Shown: positions 477-53,514, counted from the stretch's first letter. The stretch is DNA of 64,000 bases from Gammaproteobacteria bacterium (GCA_965215365.1 CBDCDS010000003.1:2272001-2336000), one strand, 5' to 3'. Made by a program: numbers and translations. The notes: generated by a model from the sequence alone, not told the origin.

Positions 477-1481
477 TCATTCCTGCTCGCCCCACTTACC
501 CGCCGGCGGATGATAGCCTTCCCTGTCAGTCGTTCCCCCATTTGGGTGGTGAAATTGATCATGTCCCCCTAAAATATCCCTGGTAATGATGATCACATTC
601 TCAATTTGCTCCGTTGCCAGTATCCGCAGCTGCTCGCTGAATGCCAACAGGTTGCCCTTGTCGGCCTGCTGTAAGGCTCTGAGATAAAGTCCTCTTGCCT
701 CTGCTCTGATGAGGGGCGGTATTTCCCCCTTGCGTATATATACGTAAGCCATGAGCAAGCGCGAGATGCGCCCGTTGCCGTCCTGAAACGGATGAGTGCG
801 GGCAAAACGTTGGTGCAACCAGGCGGCTTCGACATGGGTGGGTATATTTTGCTCACGGATAACCGAGTACAGTGAAAACAGTTTGTCCATCTCCGGCTGT
901 ACCTGTTCGGGCGGACAGTATTCAAACAACACGCCATCCTCACGCAGCGGGTTGTTATCCTTTAATTTATATTCACCTTTGCGCTCAAAAGGCACCGATA
1001 CATGTTGTGCCTGTCCTGCTTCAATATGTATGCCGGGAAGAGTTCTCTGGTGCCGGGTAATCAGTTTATGCCAGGCTTTGATAGTGGCATGCGTTAATGG
1101 TTTATTATTCTTGATGTCCTTGAAAACCAGCTCCAGTGCTGTTTCCTGATCGGCAAGCAACCCTTTGATGGTGTCATCATCCACACTTTCTAGGGTGTGG
1201 GAGGAAACAACATTGCCCAGCCCCTCTGTGATCAACTGCTCGGTAATGCCGCCTTTTAAGGTATAAAGACCTTCAAGCTGTCCGGTTTCAATGGCAAAAG
1301 CCCGGCGGCGTTCCGTCAACCAGAGGTCCAGGATGGTTCTATCTACGGCTTTGTCCGTGAGCTGTTTCTGCAACTGCCGCCATTGTGATACCAGCTCATC
1401 GTAAACACGTGAATGCCATGTTTCAGCACCCTGGGGCAAGCCGGTTAAAGGCCGCCATTTTGTTTCGTCAGGGTTGTTCAA
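477..1481 (-). CDS. Fic-domain protein
   Basis: Canonical Fic motif HPFQDGNGRISR. Confidence 0.9.
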   Translation of the reverse strand: MNNPDETKWRPLTGLPQGAETWHSRVYDELVSQWRQLQKQLTDKAVDRTILDLWLTERRRAFAIETGQLEGLYTLKGGITEQLITEGLGNVVSSHTLESVDDDTIKGLLADQETALELVFKDIKNNKPLTHATIKAWHKLITRHQRTLPGIHIEAGQAQHVSVPFERKGEYKLKDNNPLREDGVLFEYCPPEQVQPEMDKLFSLYSVIREQNIPTHVEAAWLHQRFARTHPFQDGNGRISRLLMAYVYIRKGEIPPLIRAEARGLYLRALQQADKGNLLAFSEQLRILATEQIENVIIITRDILGGHDQFHHPNGGTTDREGYHPPAGKWGEQE

Positions 1482-1563
1482 AATTTGTCCCTCTTGACAG
1501 GCATTGTCGGGCGGGTTGAATAAAATGGCAGCCGGAATAATCGGTTACGGGATGAGCCGAAGT

Positions 1564-1710
1564 TCATCTATTTTCAACATCCAGCAAATGCAGCGAACGC
1601 AGTTCGCCGCCGAGTTTTACCAGTTTCCAGAACAGTTCTTTGTCGGTGGGATAGGGAACTTTCGGGAAGTCCGTTTTCAGGAACTCCTGGTAGCGTTTGC
1701 GATCGGCCAT
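1564..1710 (-). pseudogene. Fragment resembling the C-terminal specificity region of a Type ISP restriction-modification enzyme
   Basis: Hand translation MADRKRYQEFLKTDFPKVPYPTDKELFWKLVKLGGELRSLHLLDVENR matches the RY.EFLK.DFP.VP...F..L..LG.ELR.LHLL motif; only 48 codons. Confidence 0.65.
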
Positions 1711-1738
1711 AAGAGCTTTCGTGTTCCGGCGCGAAGCC

Positions 1739-2842
1739 CTACTCCAGCTTGCCCTGATGACTCGTCTGATAACTCACCCGATAAATGGCCCCGGCCTTGT
1801 CGTCCGAGATCAGCAGGCTGCCGTCCCGGGATACCAGTACGTCGTTGGGGCGACCTGAAACCTTTTCGCCTTTCAGCCAGAGGGCCAGGAACGGTTCATA
1901 CACGGGACCGGTTTCGTCAAAGCGTACTACACTGACCCGGTAGCCCACTTTGGCAGAGCGGTTCCAGGAGCCGTGCTCGGCGATGAACAAGGCGTGGCGG
2001 TAGGCTTCGGGAAATTGATCGCCGGTGTAAAACGCTAAGCCCAGGGCGGCGGAATGAGCCTGGATTTTGACTTCCGGTGCCACGTAGTCGGCAGGGTCGT
2101 GGCCGGCGCCGAACTTGGGGTCGAGGATAGCGCCGGCATGGACATAAGGGTAGCCATAGTGGGCGCCGGCTGTGGTCACGCGGTTTATTTCTTCAGGAGG
2201 CAGGTCGTCTCCCAACCAGTCCCGGCCGTTGTCGGAGAACCATAACTCGCCGGTATCCGGGTGCCAGGCCATGCCCACGGAATTACGCACGCCGGCTGCG
2301 TAAATGGTGGTCTCGCCGGTGTCCGGATCCATACGCAGGATACTGGCGAAACGCGGGTCTTCAGACTCACAGATATTGCAGGGGGCGCCCACGGGCAGGT
2401 ACAGGAAGCCATCGGGGCCGACCGACAGGTACTTCCAACCGTGGTGGCGCTTGTCCGGCAGTGCGTCGGTCACGACTTCCGGTTGCGGGTTGTCCCTGAA
2501 TGTCTGGTCGATGTCGCGGTAGCGTAATACGCGATTCAACGCGCCCACGTACAGGTCGCCGCCAATCAGCGCCAGACCGCTGGGCAGCTTCAAGCCCCGG
2601 GCAAACGTGACGACTTCTGTGGCGCCATCGGGGCCGCTTGCCACGGCATACAGGTTCCCCTGGCGCAGTGAGCCCACCAGCAACAGCCCGGCTTCCGTCT
2701 GCGCCAGCTGGCGCGCGCCGGGCACTTCAGCAGTCAGCACAGACAGCCGGAAGTCACCAACTACGGTGTCGGCGATGGTATCGGCAAAACCGGCAAGGGG
2801 CAGTAACAACAGCAATAAAACGGGTTTGATCATGGCGCGCAC
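1739..2842 (-). CDS. Secreted PQQ-dependent sugar/sorbosone dehydrogenase family protein
   Basis: Signal peptide; motifs GAPCNIC, GVRNSVG, HGSWNR, GRPNDV. Confidence 0.85.
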   Translation of the reverse strand: MRAMIKPVLLLLLLPLAGFADTIADTVVGDFRLSVLTAEVPGARQLAQTEAGLLLVGSLRQGNLYAVASGPDGATEVVTFARGLKLPSGLALIGGDLYVGALNRVLRYRDIDQTFRDNPQPEVVTDALPDKRHHGWKYLSVGPDGFLYLPVGAPCNICESEDPRFASILRMDPDTGETTIYAAGVRNSVGMAWHPDTGELWFSDNGRDWLGDDLPPEEINRVTTAGAHYGYPYVHAGAILDPKFGAGHDPADYVAPEVKIQAHSAALGLAFYTGDQFPEAYRHALFIAEHGSWNRSAKVGYRVSVVRFDETGPVYEPFLALWLKGEKVSGRPNDVLVSRDGSLLISDDKAGAIYRVSYQTSHQGKLE

Positions 2843-49857: not shown

Positions 49858-50649
49858 ATGATCGTCGAACAAATCTGGACCGGCAACGTCTGGCGTAACT
49901 TCAATTATCTCATTGCCTGCGCGGAAACCGGCGAGGCGCTGGCCATCGACCCGTTGGCTTACGAGATGTGTCTGGAACGAGCCCAGGACCGGGGCTGGGA
50001 AATCACCCGGATATTAAATACCCATGAGCACCACGACCATACCGGCGGCAACGCCGCATTGATAGCCGCTACCGGCGCACAATTGCTGGCGCATAAAAAT
50101 GCCTGGGATCGGATCATCGGCATAGACCGGCCGTTGGCCGCCGGCGATGTAATCAAGGTTGGCAAGACGGTGGAACTGGAGGCGCTGGATACTCCGGGGC
50201 ACACCATGAGCCATATCTGCCTGCTCTCCCATAGCGATCAGCCGGCCTTGTTCTGCGGCGATACCCTGTTCAACGCTGGCGCCGGCAACTGCCACAACGG
50301 CGGCCATCCCAACCAGTTGTACCTGACGTTTTCCAGCCAGTTAGCCAGATTGCCGGACGCCACCCTGGTCTATCCGGGCCACGATTACATTATCAACAAC
50401 CTGCAGTTCACCCTGAACCGCGAGCCCGGCAATACCGAGGCGCAAACGCTGCACGATAAAATTATCGATCAGGACCCGGGCGCGGCACTGGTTACTACCA
50501 TCGGCCTGGAAAAAGCGGTCAACACATTCTTCCGGCTGCACAACCCCGAAGTTATAGAGAAACTGCGCGAGATGTTTCCCGACCTGCCCGCCAACCCGGA
50601 TGAGAAAACGGTCTTTCTGAAACTGCGGGAACTGCGTAACGACTGGTGA
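49858..50649 (+). CDS. gloB: Hydroxyacylglutathione hydrolase (glyoxalase II, metallo-beta-lactamase fold)
   Basis: THEHHDH, TPGHT, GDTLF, PGHDY motifs. Confidence 0.88.
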   Translation: MIVEQIWTGNVWRNFNYLIACAETGEALAIDPLAYEMCLERAQDRGWEITRILNTHEHHDHTGGNAALIAATGAQLLAHKNAWDRIIGIDRPLAAGDVIKVGKTVELEALDTPGHTMSHICLLSHSDQPALFCGDTLFNAGAGNCHNGGHPNQLYLTFSSQLARLPDATLVYPGHDYIINNLQFTLNREPGNTEAQTLHDKIIDQDPGAALVTTIGLEKAVNTFFRLHNPEVIEKLREMFPDLPANPDEKTVFLKLRELRNDW

Positions 50650-50669
50650 GATATGCGGGAATGGCTGCG

Positions 50670-51311
50670 TCATTCCTGTACAAACAAGCCGGGGTTATCA
50701 ATCAGGTAACGCCAGGTACGGTTGCCTGCGGGCTGCCGCCGCAATGCCAGCAGATCTGCCGGCCGGTCCAGGTCGCAGGTTAGACCCGGGGGGGCGACTA
50801 CGTTGACGGGGATGCGGTGCTGTTCCGCTTCCCGGCAAAATTCAGCAAGGCTGTGCGCGCCGTACTTCAGGTCTATGGGTAAGGGTGGGGTAAATACCAG
50901 GCCGTTGGTGCCACCGTCTCTAAGCGCGGGACACAGGGTAACGCCATCTTGATGCGCTCGCTCCAGCAGCAGCAGATCTTCGTTGCTGAGCTCCGGCACA
51001 TCGGCAGGTAGCACCAGCACCTTGTTGACGCATTTCCCGCTGAGATACTCGATGCCTTTCAAAACGTCCGCGGCATAACCGCTATCGGCGCCGGTATCCA
51101 GCACCTCAGCGCCCTGCTCCCGCGCGCCGGAGATAACGTCCGCATCGCAACTGAGCACCGTAACGCCAGCGATGACCGCAGAACCGATTAGAACGTCAAG
51201 CACATCTTCCAACATATACCAGCTGAGCTGGCGCCGCTGCCCCGGCGTCAACACCCCGGCCAGACGCAACTTGGCCTGCTCCAGCCGCTTCAGCGGGAGT
51301 AGCGCCCACAT
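50670..51311 (-). CDS. cofC: 2-phospho-L-lactate/PEP guanylyltransferase (F420 biosynthesis)
   Basis: MWALLPLKRLEQAKLRL, PADVP, GGTNGL, DLDRPADL; ATG at 51311 with AGAGGTGG SD. Confidence 0.85.
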   Translation of the reverse strand: MWALLPLKRLEQAKLRLAGVLTPGQRRQLSWYMLEDVLDVLIGSAVIAGVTVLSCDADVISGAREQGAEVLDTGADSGYAADVLKGIEYLSGKCVNKVLVLPADVPELSNEDLLLLERAHQDGVTLCPALRDGGTNGLVFTPPLPIDLKYGAHSLAEFCREAEQHRIPVNVVAPPGLTCDLDRPADLLALRRQPAGNRTWRYLIDNPGLFVQE

Positions 51312-51312
51312 G

Positions 51313-51341
51313 TGGCCACCTCTAAAAATTAGAGGTGGCCA
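51313..51341. repeat. Perfect 13-bp inverted repeat (minimal family B element) covering the cofC SD
   Basis: TGGCCACCTCTAA-AAA-TTAGAGGTGGCCA. Confidence 0.85.
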
Positions 51342-51419
51342 TGCAGCATAAGGACATGCTGCCAGTAACAGCAAGCACGTCAGTGCTTGAAAATGACAAA
51401 TCGTCAGGATAGACGATTT

Positions 51420-52211
51420 GCAAACTACATCCGTGTAGTTTGCCCCGATGGGGCCAGCTGCGCTGTCCAAATTCGTTCCAGACGAATTTGTGCAAACTAC
51501 ATCCGTGTAGTTTGCCCCGATGGGGCCAGCTGCGCTGTCCAAATTCGTTCCAGACGAATTTGTGCAAACTACATCCGTGTAGTTTGCCCCGATGGGGCCA
51601 GCTGCGCTGTCCAAATTCGTTCCAGACGAATTTGTGCAAACTACATCCGTGTAGTTTGCCCCGATGGGGCCAGCTGCGCTGTCCAAATTCGTTCCAGACG
51701 AATTTGTGCAAACTACATCCGTGTAGTTTGCCCCGATGGGGCCAGCTGCGCTGTCCAAATTCGTTCCAGACGAATTTGTGCAAACTACATCCGTGTAGTT
51801 TGCCCCGATGGGGCCAGCTGCGCTGTCCAAATTCGTTCCAGACGAATTTGTGCAAACTACATCCGTGTAGTTTGCCCCGATGGGGCCAGCTGCGCTGTCC
51901 AAATTCGTTCCAGACGAATTTGTGCAAACTACATCCGTGTAGTTTGCCCCGATGGGGCCAGCTGCGCTGTCCAAATTCGTTCCAGACGAATTTGTGCAAA
52001 CTACATCCGTGTAGTTTGCCCCGATGGGGCCAGCTGCGCTGTCCAAATTCGTTCCAGACGAATTTGTGCAAACTACATCCGTGTAGTTTGCCCCGATGGG
52101 GCCAGCTGCGCTGTCCAAATTCGTTCCAGACGAATTTGTGCAAACTACATCCGTGTAGTTTGCCCCGATGGGGCCAGCTGCGCTGTCCAAATTCGTTCCA
52201 GACGAATTTGT
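51420..52211. repeat. Tandem array of 11 identical 72-bp multi-hairpin units
   Basis: Unit GCAAACTACATCCGTGTAGTTTGCCCCGATGGGGCCAGCTGCGCTGTCCAAATTCGTTCCAGACGAATTTGT; no variable spacers. Confidence 0.97.
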
Positions 52212-52268
52212 GCACAGCGATAGCTGCCCGAAGGGTTGCGTCCATGGATGGATGCAATGAGGGATCTG

Positions 52269-52928
52269 TCAGATGCCGGTGATACAGATACCGGAATGGG
52301 AGGTCTTGTAGGTCCTGTTGATGTGGATAAGCAGGCTGGTCAGGGCTTCGGTGGCGGCGGCGTTGGCAAGTTTGCCGGCATTGATGGCGCGACAACCGCT
52401 GTCCTGCACCAGTTGCATGACCTCCTTGCGGGTTGCCGGGTCGTCCCCGGTCACCAGGATGTCGCAGTCTATGTCCACATCCTGCTCCAGCAGGTTGGCG
52501 GCGACATTGTGGTAGGCGGCGCAGACCCGCGCCTGTGCGCCCACCAGTTGCTGCGTGATCACTGCTGCGCTGCCCTGTTCCGGCAACCGTACCACGGCCA
52601 CCTTGGGCGGCGCCAGCGGCACCGTGGTGTCTATCAGCAGCTGTCCGGACAGGGCCGGCAGGATGTCCTCCAGGGTGGCTGCATGGGCGGCAAACGGCAC
52701 CGTCAGCGTCACCACCTCCGCCTGACGGGTGGCGCCGAGGTTATCGGCACCGGTAATCGTCTCCACGCCCTGCTTGCCATTGAGTTCGGCAGCTACGCGT
52801 TGCGCCTTGTCCGCCACCCGGGAACCGATGATCACCTCATGCCCGGCCCGGGCCCAGCGCCAGGCCAGACCGTAACCCAGGTTGCCGGTGCCGCCGAGGA
52901 TAGCTATTTTTTTTCTGTTACAATGCAA
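52269..52928 (-). CDS. npdG: NADPH-dependent F420 reductase
   Basis: IAILGGTGNLGYGLA.R.A.AG..V.IGSR, GSAA, C-terminal GI.ITG; next to cofC. Confidence 0.88.
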   Translation of the reverse strand: MHCNRKKIAILGGTGNLGYGLAWRWARAGHEVIIGSRVADKAQRVAAELNGKQGVETITGADNLGATRQAEVVTLTVPFAAHAATLEDILPALSGQLLIDTTVPLAPPKVAVVRLPEQGSAAVITQQLVGAQARVCAAYHNVAANLLEQDVDIDCDILVTGDDPATRKEVMQLVQDSGCRAINAGKLANAAATEALTSLLIHINRTYKTSHSGICITGI

Positions 52929-52944
52929 ACCTGTTACTCCAAAT

Positions 52945-53018
52945 TGGGGGCTCGTCTAACGGTAGGACAGCGGACTCTGACTCCGCCGGTAGAGGTTCGA
53001 ATCCTCTGCCCCCAGCCA
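52945..53018 (+). tRNA. tRNA-Gln(CUG)
   Basis: Cloverleaf with acceptor TGGGGGC/GCCCCCA, anticodon CTG at 52977-52979, TTCGAAT loop, encoded CCA. Confidence 0.95.
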
Positions 53019-53031
53019 GTTCCACGTTCAT

Positions 53032-53514
53032 CTACAGGTTGGCCAGGACGTTCTCAGCCGAACTGACCTTGAATTGCATGGGCGCTTCGACATGGAGTTG
53101 AGTGACTACGCCGTCATCCACCACCATGGCGAAACGCTGGCCGCGGGTAGCCATGCCCGAATCGGCAAAGTCCTGTTCCAGCCCCAACGCCGCGGCGTAG
53201 GCACCGTTGCCGTCAGCCAGCATCAACACCTTGTCGCCGGCGCCGACGCGCTGGCCCCAGGCCTCCATTACAAACATATCGTTCACCGCCATGCAGGCGA
53301 TGGTATCCACGCCTTTGGCCTTGATGGCTGCGGCCTGTTCGATGAAGCCAGGCAAGTGCTCTTTATGGCAAGTCGGGGTAAACGCGCCCGGCGTAGAAAA
53401 CACCACGACCTTCTTGCCGCCAAACAATTCATCGGTACTGACCGAACCCGGCCCGTCTGCATTGATGACGTGAAACCGCCCGTCAGGGGCTTTATCTCCA
53501 ACTTGTATTGTCAC
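53032..53514 (-). CDS. Peroxiredoxin (Prx5 type)
   Basis: PGAFTPTCHKEHLPG motif; GGAGG before GTG 53514. Confidence 0.92.
   Translation of the reverse strand: MTIQVGDKAPDGRFHVINADGPGSVSTDELFGGKKVVVFSTPGAFTPTCHKEHLPGFIEQAAAIKAKGVDTIACMAVNDMFVMEAWGQRVGAGDKVLMLADGNGAYAAALGLEQDFADSGMATRGQRFAMVVDDGVVTQLHVEAPMQFKVSSAENVLANL

Follow-up and report, generated by a model that had tools for sequence, protein, structure and literature searches.

The window analysed here (64,000 nt of one strand of a gammaproteobacterial genome, GCA_965215365.1, CBDCDS010000003.1:2272001-2336000; positions are counted from its first letter) contains an array of 11 identical 72-nt units between npdG and cofC, two genes of an F420 operon. 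With a probability of about 0.7, we interpret this array as a hairpin module of a type linked to transfer RNA (tRNA) genes and resembling the RtT repeats of Escherichia coli, carried by a MITE (a miniature transposable element with inverted repeats), amplified in tandem, and present in the npdG-cofC spacer as a recent passenger. In this lineage, one composite MITE would have landed 2 nt upstream of the cofC start codon and would later have lost its npdG-facing end; the internal module would have expanded to 11 identical copies, presumably through unequal recombination or slippage. Most likely the array is selfish DNA that the host tolerates, probably read through in an npdG-cofC transcript, in which it would display 22 hairpins with GGA loops; binding of the regulator CsrA by this RNA, or a perturbed expression of cofC, may occur as a by-product, without having evolved as a function. 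The array would thus be no conserved regulator of the F420 genes and would at most alter cofC expression in one lineage.

Structure and insertion of the array

One array was detected by Tandem Repeats Finder (TRF) at 51419-52214 (period 72, 11.1 copies, 100% matches, 0 indels). An initial annotation of the window had placed 11 identical 72-bp units at 51420-52211; the units are present and perfect, their register being one base off 51419-52210. In the minus-strand RNA, a single unit folds into four consecutive hairpins (minimum free energy -29.1 kcal/mol, z = -4.2, 0 of 200 shuffles as stable): CAAAUUCGU-CUGGA-ACGAAUUUG with a 9-bp stem, CAGC-GCA-GCUG with a 4-bp stem, a small GC stem (CCC/GGG), and GCAAACUACA-CGGA-UGUAGUUUGC with a 10-bp stem. 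The 10-bp CGGA, 9-bp CUGGA and small GC hairpins had been proposed earlier and are all recovered in the fold, the 4-bp CAGC/GCUG stem being additional; the plus strand of the unit folds equally stably (-29.3 kcal/mol). Each unit presents on the minus strand one (A/U)CANGGANG(U/A) hairpin, one CUGGA hairpin and one unpaired GGA, giving 22 GGA loops and 11 unpaired GGA over the array, in agreement with the 33 GGA counted before; over the whole of 51314-52267 there are 34 GGA on the minus strand (33 within the array) versus five on the plus strand. The minus strand of the array contains the 10-mer (A/U)CANGGANG(U/A) 11 times, the plus strand not once. A coding repeat was considered, four of the six frames of the unit being open and one of them in frame with cofC, and was ruled out by codon usage: scores are negative in all six frames (-1.8 to -10.8 per unit), and the open frames are therefore not genes (cofC, +5.3 per 24 codons; npdG, +8.2).

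The identification of the flanking F420 genes as npdG and cofC is borne out by matches to PF03807 and PF01983 (Table 1). Both genes are adjacent on one strand in 23 of 23 genus genomes. Their spacer measures 13-240 nt in 22 of 23 other genus loci (L121 not measurable) and none contains a 72-nt unit; in locus L039 of the same genus, in which CofC is 87% identical, 33 nt separate the npdG stop from the cofC ATG. Empty-site contigs in the public runs X6 and X7 join 51313 to 52268, skipping 954 nt and carrying 18 other letters between, and the npdG-side boundary of the element was set by this joint. The array is an insertion in this lineage only and is not conserved at the locus. Two other small inverted-repeat elements occupy the npdG-cofC spacer in other species (L104-L120), the first with ends ATCCGCAGAT...ATCTGCGGAT, the second with ends GGGGTCAGAGTAAAAAT...ATTTTTACTCTGACCCC. 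Since several genus spacers hold such elements, the spacer tolerates insertions and is a recurrent landing site for small elements.

The inserted element ends 2 nt from the cofC ATG, and its terminal palindrome (window 51312-51345) puts GAGG 7 nt before this ATG, within a 12-bp stem. As the ancestral spacer has been replaced, translation signals of cofC are now supplied by the element, and this GAGG could act as the Shine-Dalgarno sequence of cofC. A scan for promoter-like and terminator-like sites in 50600-53100 returned 0 and 0; with no such site separating npdG, array and cofC, a read-through messenger RNA (mRNA) bearing the array, and thus co-transcription of the three, is plausible.

The end of the element facing cofC carries the sole match to the terminal inverted repeat (TIR) pattern between 50000 and 54000 (51314-51329). 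The stretch 51314-51418 folds with -49.3 kcal/mol (z = -8.8) and is dispersed in the genome in more than 50 whole or partial copies. The window copy was compared with sister elements in its own genome, G000 (C3:2120217-2120946 and C3:1193234-1193603), and with copies in another genome of the genus, G006. Alignment of the loci delimits a composite element with a backbone of ~150 bp, 16-nt TIRs and 4-bp target site duplications (TSDs), in which a nested pair of modules encloses the units. The complete 730-bp sister element (G000 C3:2120217-2120946) has an identical 6-unit array, both TIRs and the TSD TTAT/TTAT; the window copy is without ~70 nt of backbone on the npdG side, including the second TIR. 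TSDs were found for 10 of 24 TIR pairs in G000. The 20 unit-bearing loci of G006 comprise nine with both TIRs, five of these having perfect 4-bp duplications, six with one TIR, as in the window copy, and five with neither, in another backbone.

The flanking modules stay the same while they enclose 0, 1, 2, 3, 4, 6, 7, 11 or 20 units; at G000 C3:829709 and C3:2257387 the inner modules are present and enclose no unit. The window's genome gave 37 BLAST matches to the unit, including single copies and a second perfect 6 x 72 array 203 kb away, and unit matches were obtained in 16 of 22 other genus genomes, G006 having 68, in arrays of 1 to 20 units. The family shows the traits of a MITE, being small, non-coding and multi-copy, with empty sites in relatives.

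A module family linked to tRNA genes

The 72-nt module also occurs outside the MITE. In G000, tandem units of 173 nt lie directly 3' of three tRNA-Ser genes (GGA, TGA, GCT) and hold variants 85-87% identical to the unit; their order is trailer hairpin, degenerate T-arm half ending in GGGTTCGA, module, and ATCCCTCTCTCTCCGCCA, an 18-nt copy of the tRNA 3' end. A tRNA-Ser gene adjoins 10 of 14 divergent genus loci. In a second, different split-tRNA context (L036 of genome G014, 1440-2000, minus strand), the module comes after the initial 22 nt, comprising acceptor and D-arm, of tRNA-Ser(TGA) 5' fragments, which are repeated four times upstream of the intact gene.

Alignment of 35 distinct genus variants of the unit (A1) supports the four-hairpin fold: pairing holds in 97.1% of cells, and two-sided changes are seen in 10 of 26 pairs, a result reached by 0 of 500 shuffles, with slid controls at 20-45% pairing. 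The covariance model built from A1 (R1) was searched in 150 other genomes representing as many families of the class; 61 of them hold full-length matches, which score up to 80 bits (59 of 148 leaving out the unpublished G063 and G165). From these, 49 class-level loci were retrieved, with 77 module matches, 68 of them distinct; two-sided changes are found in all 26 pairs and 93.2% of cells pair, figures that lean towards structure because the class-level alignment was fitted to the model. Of the 49 loci, 23 have a tRNA or transfer-messenger RNA (tmRNA) gene no more than 300 nt away (Ser, Arg, Gly, Glu, Leu, Gln, tmRNA), and in 20 of these 23 it is on the strand of the module, the three exceptions all being in one genome. 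TTCGA precedes 29 of the 77 modules and ATCC follows 25. The module is older and more widespread than the MITE, and constitutes a structured repeat family across the class, its customary site being beside tRNA and tmRNA genes, where it interrupts the T-loop sequence of a duplicated tRNA 3' fragment. Because it is embedded in a direct copy of a tRNA end, its sense orientation is not independent evidence for a role as RNA. Plasmid and E. coli collections gave a single match, 29 nt long and next to pduE of the Salmonella pdu operon (E = 1e-3), which was taken as chance. In the full-text literature (supplementary files aside), no paper was found on a CsrA-linked repetitive extragenic palindromic element or on a tRNA-linked tandem hairpin mosaic of such kind.

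Orientation was counted with our own codon-usage open reading frame (ORF) caller, not from curated annotation. In G006, eight of 21 distinct loci lie between co-directional genes, with the GGA strand sense in four and antisense in four; the remaining loci are in convergent (6) and divergent (7) spacers. Four full-length copies of G000 that are not tRNA-linked lie between co-directional genes, one in sense (the F420 copy) and three in antisense. Array length is the same in sense and antisense copies of G006 (7 units each at L058 and L057), and in A1 five G.U cells on the GGA strand stand against five A.C cells, i.e., G.U when read on the opposite strand. For the dispersed copies, neither the orientation counts nor the strand comparison speaks in favour of a function as RNA.

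The hairpins might instead be signals at the DNA level, the module itself being a small element, mobile or recombinogenic, that is recognised when folded as single-stranded DNA, with the loops as recognition sites of an enzyme, T-loop-like T[T/C]GA^AT and its own 3' end TGCA^A as targets, and head-to-tail arrays built by repeated insertion. This would suit the same sharp module boundaries in three settings (within the MITE, in T-loops of tRNA 3' fragments, and behind the D-arm in the G014 tRNA-Ser 5' fragments); the TTCGA before so many modules; the equal folding of both strands and the lack of strand asymmetry in wobble pairs; and one G006 copy (L053, 1540-1611) in which the loop of the 10-bp hairpin is inverted (TCCA for TGGA) on an unchanged stem, which is a footprint of hairpin flip or template switch. 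We nevertheless regard such a DNA signal as improbable, since no candidate enzyme was found among the Y1 (HUH) transposases and tyrosine recombinases checked, Y1 transposases do not track the element (no Y1_Tnp, PF01797, in G006 with its 68 unit matches; two in G003, which has no unit), and slippage accounts equally well for perfect arrays. Mobilisation by RAYT or IS200/IS605 transposases was rejected on the same phyletic pattern, and an integrase may have driven the arrays at tRNA-Ser genes, but G000 has only three tyrosine recombinases, none of them near a tRNA-Ser gene.

Table 1 Location of the array, its carrier element, flanking genes and tRNA-linked arrays. Positions refer to the window unless a contig of G000 is named.
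Feature	Location	Strand	Basis or remark
MITE backbone end with TIR: 16-nt TIR (51314-51329), 27-nt palindrome, three further hairpins	51314..51418		TIR pattern; dispersed repeat; fold
72-nt four-hairpin modules, 11 identical	51419..52210	minus	TRF; fold; R1, 98.2 bits per unit; GGA loops on minus strand
Inner right-hand module of composite element	52211..52267		Compared with complete sister elements; truncated 4 nt after npdG stop
cofC (2-phospho-L-lactate guanylyltransferase-like), 213 aa	50670..51311	minus	Pfam PF01983, E = 2.2e-18; 87% identical to L039 relative
npdG-like F420-dependent NADP oxidoreductase, 219 aa	52269..52928	minus	Pfam PF03807, E = 3.6e-17
tRNA gene, outside the element, upstream of npdG on the opposite strand	52945..53015	plus	Rfam RF00005, 60.2 bits
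tRNA-Ser-linked 173-nt arrays	G000 C3:2343043-2343955, C3:1814684-1814929, C3:11218-11474		Third just downstream of csrA-tRNA-Ser(GCT)

Other repeats were noted in G000. Its sole Y1_Tnp (RAYT-like) match (C3:1056890-1057120, 33.5 bits) adjoins a 48-bp x 7.9 two-hairpin array at C3:1057201-1057579; the two are likely a REPIN-RAYT pair, unrelated to the 72-nt unit. An element of 2.28 kb (e.g., C3:1190790-1193072) is present in at least 14 copies with 99.7-100% identity, three of them extended to 3.6 kb with a 72-nt unit; going by the printed sequence, we take it to encode a putative IS66-type transposase, and the ORF after the six-unit array presumably encodes, on the same footing, an integrase-core protein (IS481/IS3-like). 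Further perfect or near-perfect tandem arrays (C3:461821-462310, 2045502-2045800, 2070474-2071243, 2072845-2073230) have periods of 122-128 bp, 99-100% matches and ends resembling GTTAAAA/TTTTAAC. Four more (C3:104494-105228, 178762-179493, 785014-785750, 1858829-1859660), with a period of 242-243 bp in 3 copies, are probably head-to-tail MITE arrays; pieces of the 242-243-bp unit flank some 72-nt fragments (C3:609274, 1122783). Two CRISPR-like arrays (C3:474884-477364 and C3:1081905-1083307) with 36-37-nt repeats and periods of ~73 nt were also returned by TRF.

CsrA-type loops and the sponge question

The 10-bp hairpin of the unit agrees with the CsrA consensus RUACARGGAUGU at 10 of 12 positions, so that the near-consensus loop noted in the initial annotation holds, and with the RsmE consensus (A/U)CANGGANG(U/A) at 10 of 10 (both consensus sequences as given in passages of PMC7652899 and PMC6849547). 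The density of this 10-mer in the array is ~119 times that of the genome, where it amounts to 0.097 per kb per strand. A csrA gene with canonical N-terminal 60 residues, for which a check had been proposed, is present in the window's genome. Among the hairpin loops of the whole genome, GGA ranks first of the triplets if every copy is counted (259 of 904 hairpins) and is level with CCG if each distinct hairpin counts once (107 versus 106 of 596); GGA loops are not a general property of the genome.

In two other families, modules lie within 500 nt of csrA (G075 C1:398190-398904, L149; G174 C1:1152915-1153676, L163), in G075 between csrA and a tRNA gene on the same strand; this proximity arises because csrA and tRNA-Ser(GCT) are linked. 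An autoregulatory operon of csrA, tRNA-Ser(GCT) and unit was considered and rejected: the synteny of csrA and tRNA-Ser is found in 21 of 22 genus loci, and units follow only in G000 and G006. Across the class, cross-tabulation gave csrA in 52 of 61 module-positive versus 70 of 89 module-negative genomes, so that the two are not associated; no csrA match was obtained in G156, which is 90% complete and has 11 modules.

The array had been proposed to be a copy-number-tunable CsrA/RsmA sponge or regulatory platform, which would have evolved in the npdG-cofC mRNA and would titrate CsrA or put cofC under Csr control. Apart from the canonical csrA, the 11 perfect (A/U)CANGGANG(U/A) hairpins and the 22 further GGA of the minus strand, it has in its favour the lack of a terminator-like site between npdG and cofC, and the lack of any match to the Rfam models RF00018, RF00166 and RF00195 (CsrB, RsmZ and RsmY types) in the whole genome, so that the role of sponge is not visibly filled. 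Scans of the genome for ANGGA density and for GacA boxes, the latter with what we take to be the GacA-box motif, returned no canonical Csr small RNA (sRNA) candidate; none of the six intergenic GacA-box-like sites (<=2 mismatches) is at the array locus. The GGA sites are spaced by 25 and 47 nt, inside the range of 10-63 nt over which CsrA can bridge two sites (according to passages of PMC7652899); against this, the stems of the unit have 9-10 bp, whereas hairpin ligands of CsrA obtained by SELEX (systematic ligand evolution by exponential enrichment) mostly have <=4 contiguous pairs (same passages).

As an evolved function, sponge or platform appears quite improbable. Both a regulatory platform of the F420 operon and a Csr-sponge gene have against them the lineage-specific insertion of a truncated MITE, absent from 23 other npdG-cofC loci and from the empty-site contigs, the site being empty in all relatives examined, as well as carrier copies in either orientation to genes, equal array lengths in sense and antisense, strand-symmetric wobble pairs, long stems, the missing Rfam Csr/Rsm match and the lack of a promoter, GacA box or terminator of its own. 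What stands of the proposal is that hairpins and GGA loops are real, that csrA is present, that the likeness of the loops is conserved and that read-through is plausible. A dedicated sponge is not supported; binding of CsrA to the array RNA as a side effect is plausible. If transcribed, the array would show many CsrA-type sites, and nothing marks it as an evolved sponge.

Several observations count against reading the array as a recent, MITE-borne passenger of RtT-like origin. The window copy carries one TIR only and, being truncated, has no readable TSD, and we therefore infer its arrival by transposition from the sister copies. A transposase with matching ends was not found: five TIR pairs 1-1.8 kb apart enclose host genes, and no further search was made. 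The E. coli RtT insert is without GGA loops and R1 scores 8 bits on it, while the tRNA-Ser array of G000 has no match to the RtT model even at E <= 10 and the F420 array has none; the relation to RtT therefore rests on architecture and intermediates, not on model membership. In A1, GGA is kept in 35 of 35 first loops and 33 of 35 last loops, the triloop of the small stem varying freely; all six GGA columns versus one of six other loop columns are >=90% conserved, and (A/U)CANGGANG(U/A) is kept in 28 of 35 variants, with its N positions varying. At class level the first-loop GGA is kept in 65 of 68 distinct copies, CANGGANG being found in the last hairpin of 43 of 68 (a regular-expression count with a few spurious hits). 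Such conservation at the level of the family points to a constraint on the sequence of the GGA loops, for which a purely neutral reading offers no account.

The copy number of 11, finally, comes from the assembly: identical 72-bp units are unresolvable by short reads, the Logan contigs of the public runs X1 and X5 end at the repeat edges, those of X1, X5, X6 and X7 do not span the array, and summed word depths over the unit do not equal copy number. That the unit number, or the array itself, is an assembly artefact is very improbable all the same: the genome is in 3 contigs and contains the second perfect array, the independently assembled G006 has arrays of up to 20 units at ~20 loci, and junction contigs of X1 and X5 cover both array edges with 0 differences.

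It is unlikely, if somewhat less far-fetched, that the module is the core of RtT-like RNAs co-transcribed with tRNA and tmRNA genes in many families of marine Gammaproteobacteria, that its two conserved GGA loops are bona fide CsrA sites, and that a MITE captured the module in this genus, spreading decoy cassettes, dosed by tandem amplification, into mRNAs such as npdG-cofC. If this were true, CsrA decoys from tRNA operons would be a new class of Csr antagonist and would give RtT-type repeats a first function. The wider interest of the array lies in its module, with strong covariation, occurrence in 61 of 150 sampled families, a tie to tRNA and tmRNA genes like that of the unexplained E. coli RtT repeats, and loops of CsrA/RsmE type. 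If the module RNA binds CsrA, the output of tRNA operons would be linked to the Csr network and a transposon would be scattering regulator-binding cassettes through the genome; if it does not, the family would still be a well-defined entry to the origin of tRNA-linked repeats.

Comparison with known systems

RtT, the 178-bp tyrT-distal repeats of E. coli, were reportedly the subject of earlier work of Egan and Landy as well as of Bosl and Kersten. RtT RNA (RF00391; gene rttR) reportedly arises by processing of the tyrT transcript and affects the stringent response, by a mode of action described as unknown (passages of bioRxiv 10.1101/2024.07.17.603846). In the tyrV/tyrT distal repeats (rttR) of E. 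coli K-12, GGTTCGA is followed by a 68-nt hairpin insert including CCCGAAGGG and then by ATCCTTCCCCCACCACCA. The tRNA-Ser arrays of G000 and the E. coli repeats have in common tandem units of 173-178 nt, located 3' of a tRNA gene on the same strand and each closing with a copied tRNA 3' end; a multi-hairpin insert of ~70 nt, including CCCGAAGGG, splits the T-loop sequence in both (GGTTCGA-module-ATCC...CCA). At L158 and L170, 7 of 7 modules lie within sub-threshold RtT matches (30.3-38.5 bits; gathering score 45), and one module region of these loci reaches AaHKsRNA22 above threshold. Unlike RtT, the F420 array has neither a tRNA fragment nor a tRNA neighbour.

With CsrB, CsrC, RsmX, RsmY and RsmZ the array shares many GGA in hairpin loops of a repetitive RNA and the loop consensus. 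It differs from these sRNAs in being no independent gene (no promoter, GacA box or terminator), in its long stems, mobility, occurrence in either orientation and lack of conservation at the locus, and in matching no Rfam model.

One MITE backbone copy (G000 C3:946143-946273) matches the TwoAYGGAY RNA motif (RF01731) with 34.2 bits, below the gathering score of 43; its two hairpins with CA(C)GGA(U/G)G loops align to the two AYGGAY hairpins of the motif (as described in part of PMC2864571). This match falls on the opposite strand from that on which the units carry their GGA, and the 72-nt unit itself has no match.

Chunjie, a MITE in Geobacter uraniireducens, is likewise a recently active MITE in an intergenic position within an operon, and copies of it that are full, shortened or partial lie elsewhere in its genome (passages of PMC10969869). 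It has no amplified internal module and no sequence relationship to the element described here.

In architecture the element matches the BOX elements of Streptococcus pneumoniae, with no sequence relationship expected. The unit here has 72 nt (pneumococcal boxB, 45 nt), four hairpins and copy numbers that reach 11-20, and in contrast to BOX the internal module also occurs outside the MITE, beside tRNA genes. In BOX elements, the number of boxB modules between boxA and boxC is variable, most so in the longer arrays (passages of PMC3049150). As here, they are MITE-like composites with conserved terminal modules and a variable tandem internal module, their size varies between loci and strains, they insert into one another and into operons, and folded RNA is predicted for them if transcribed (same passages).

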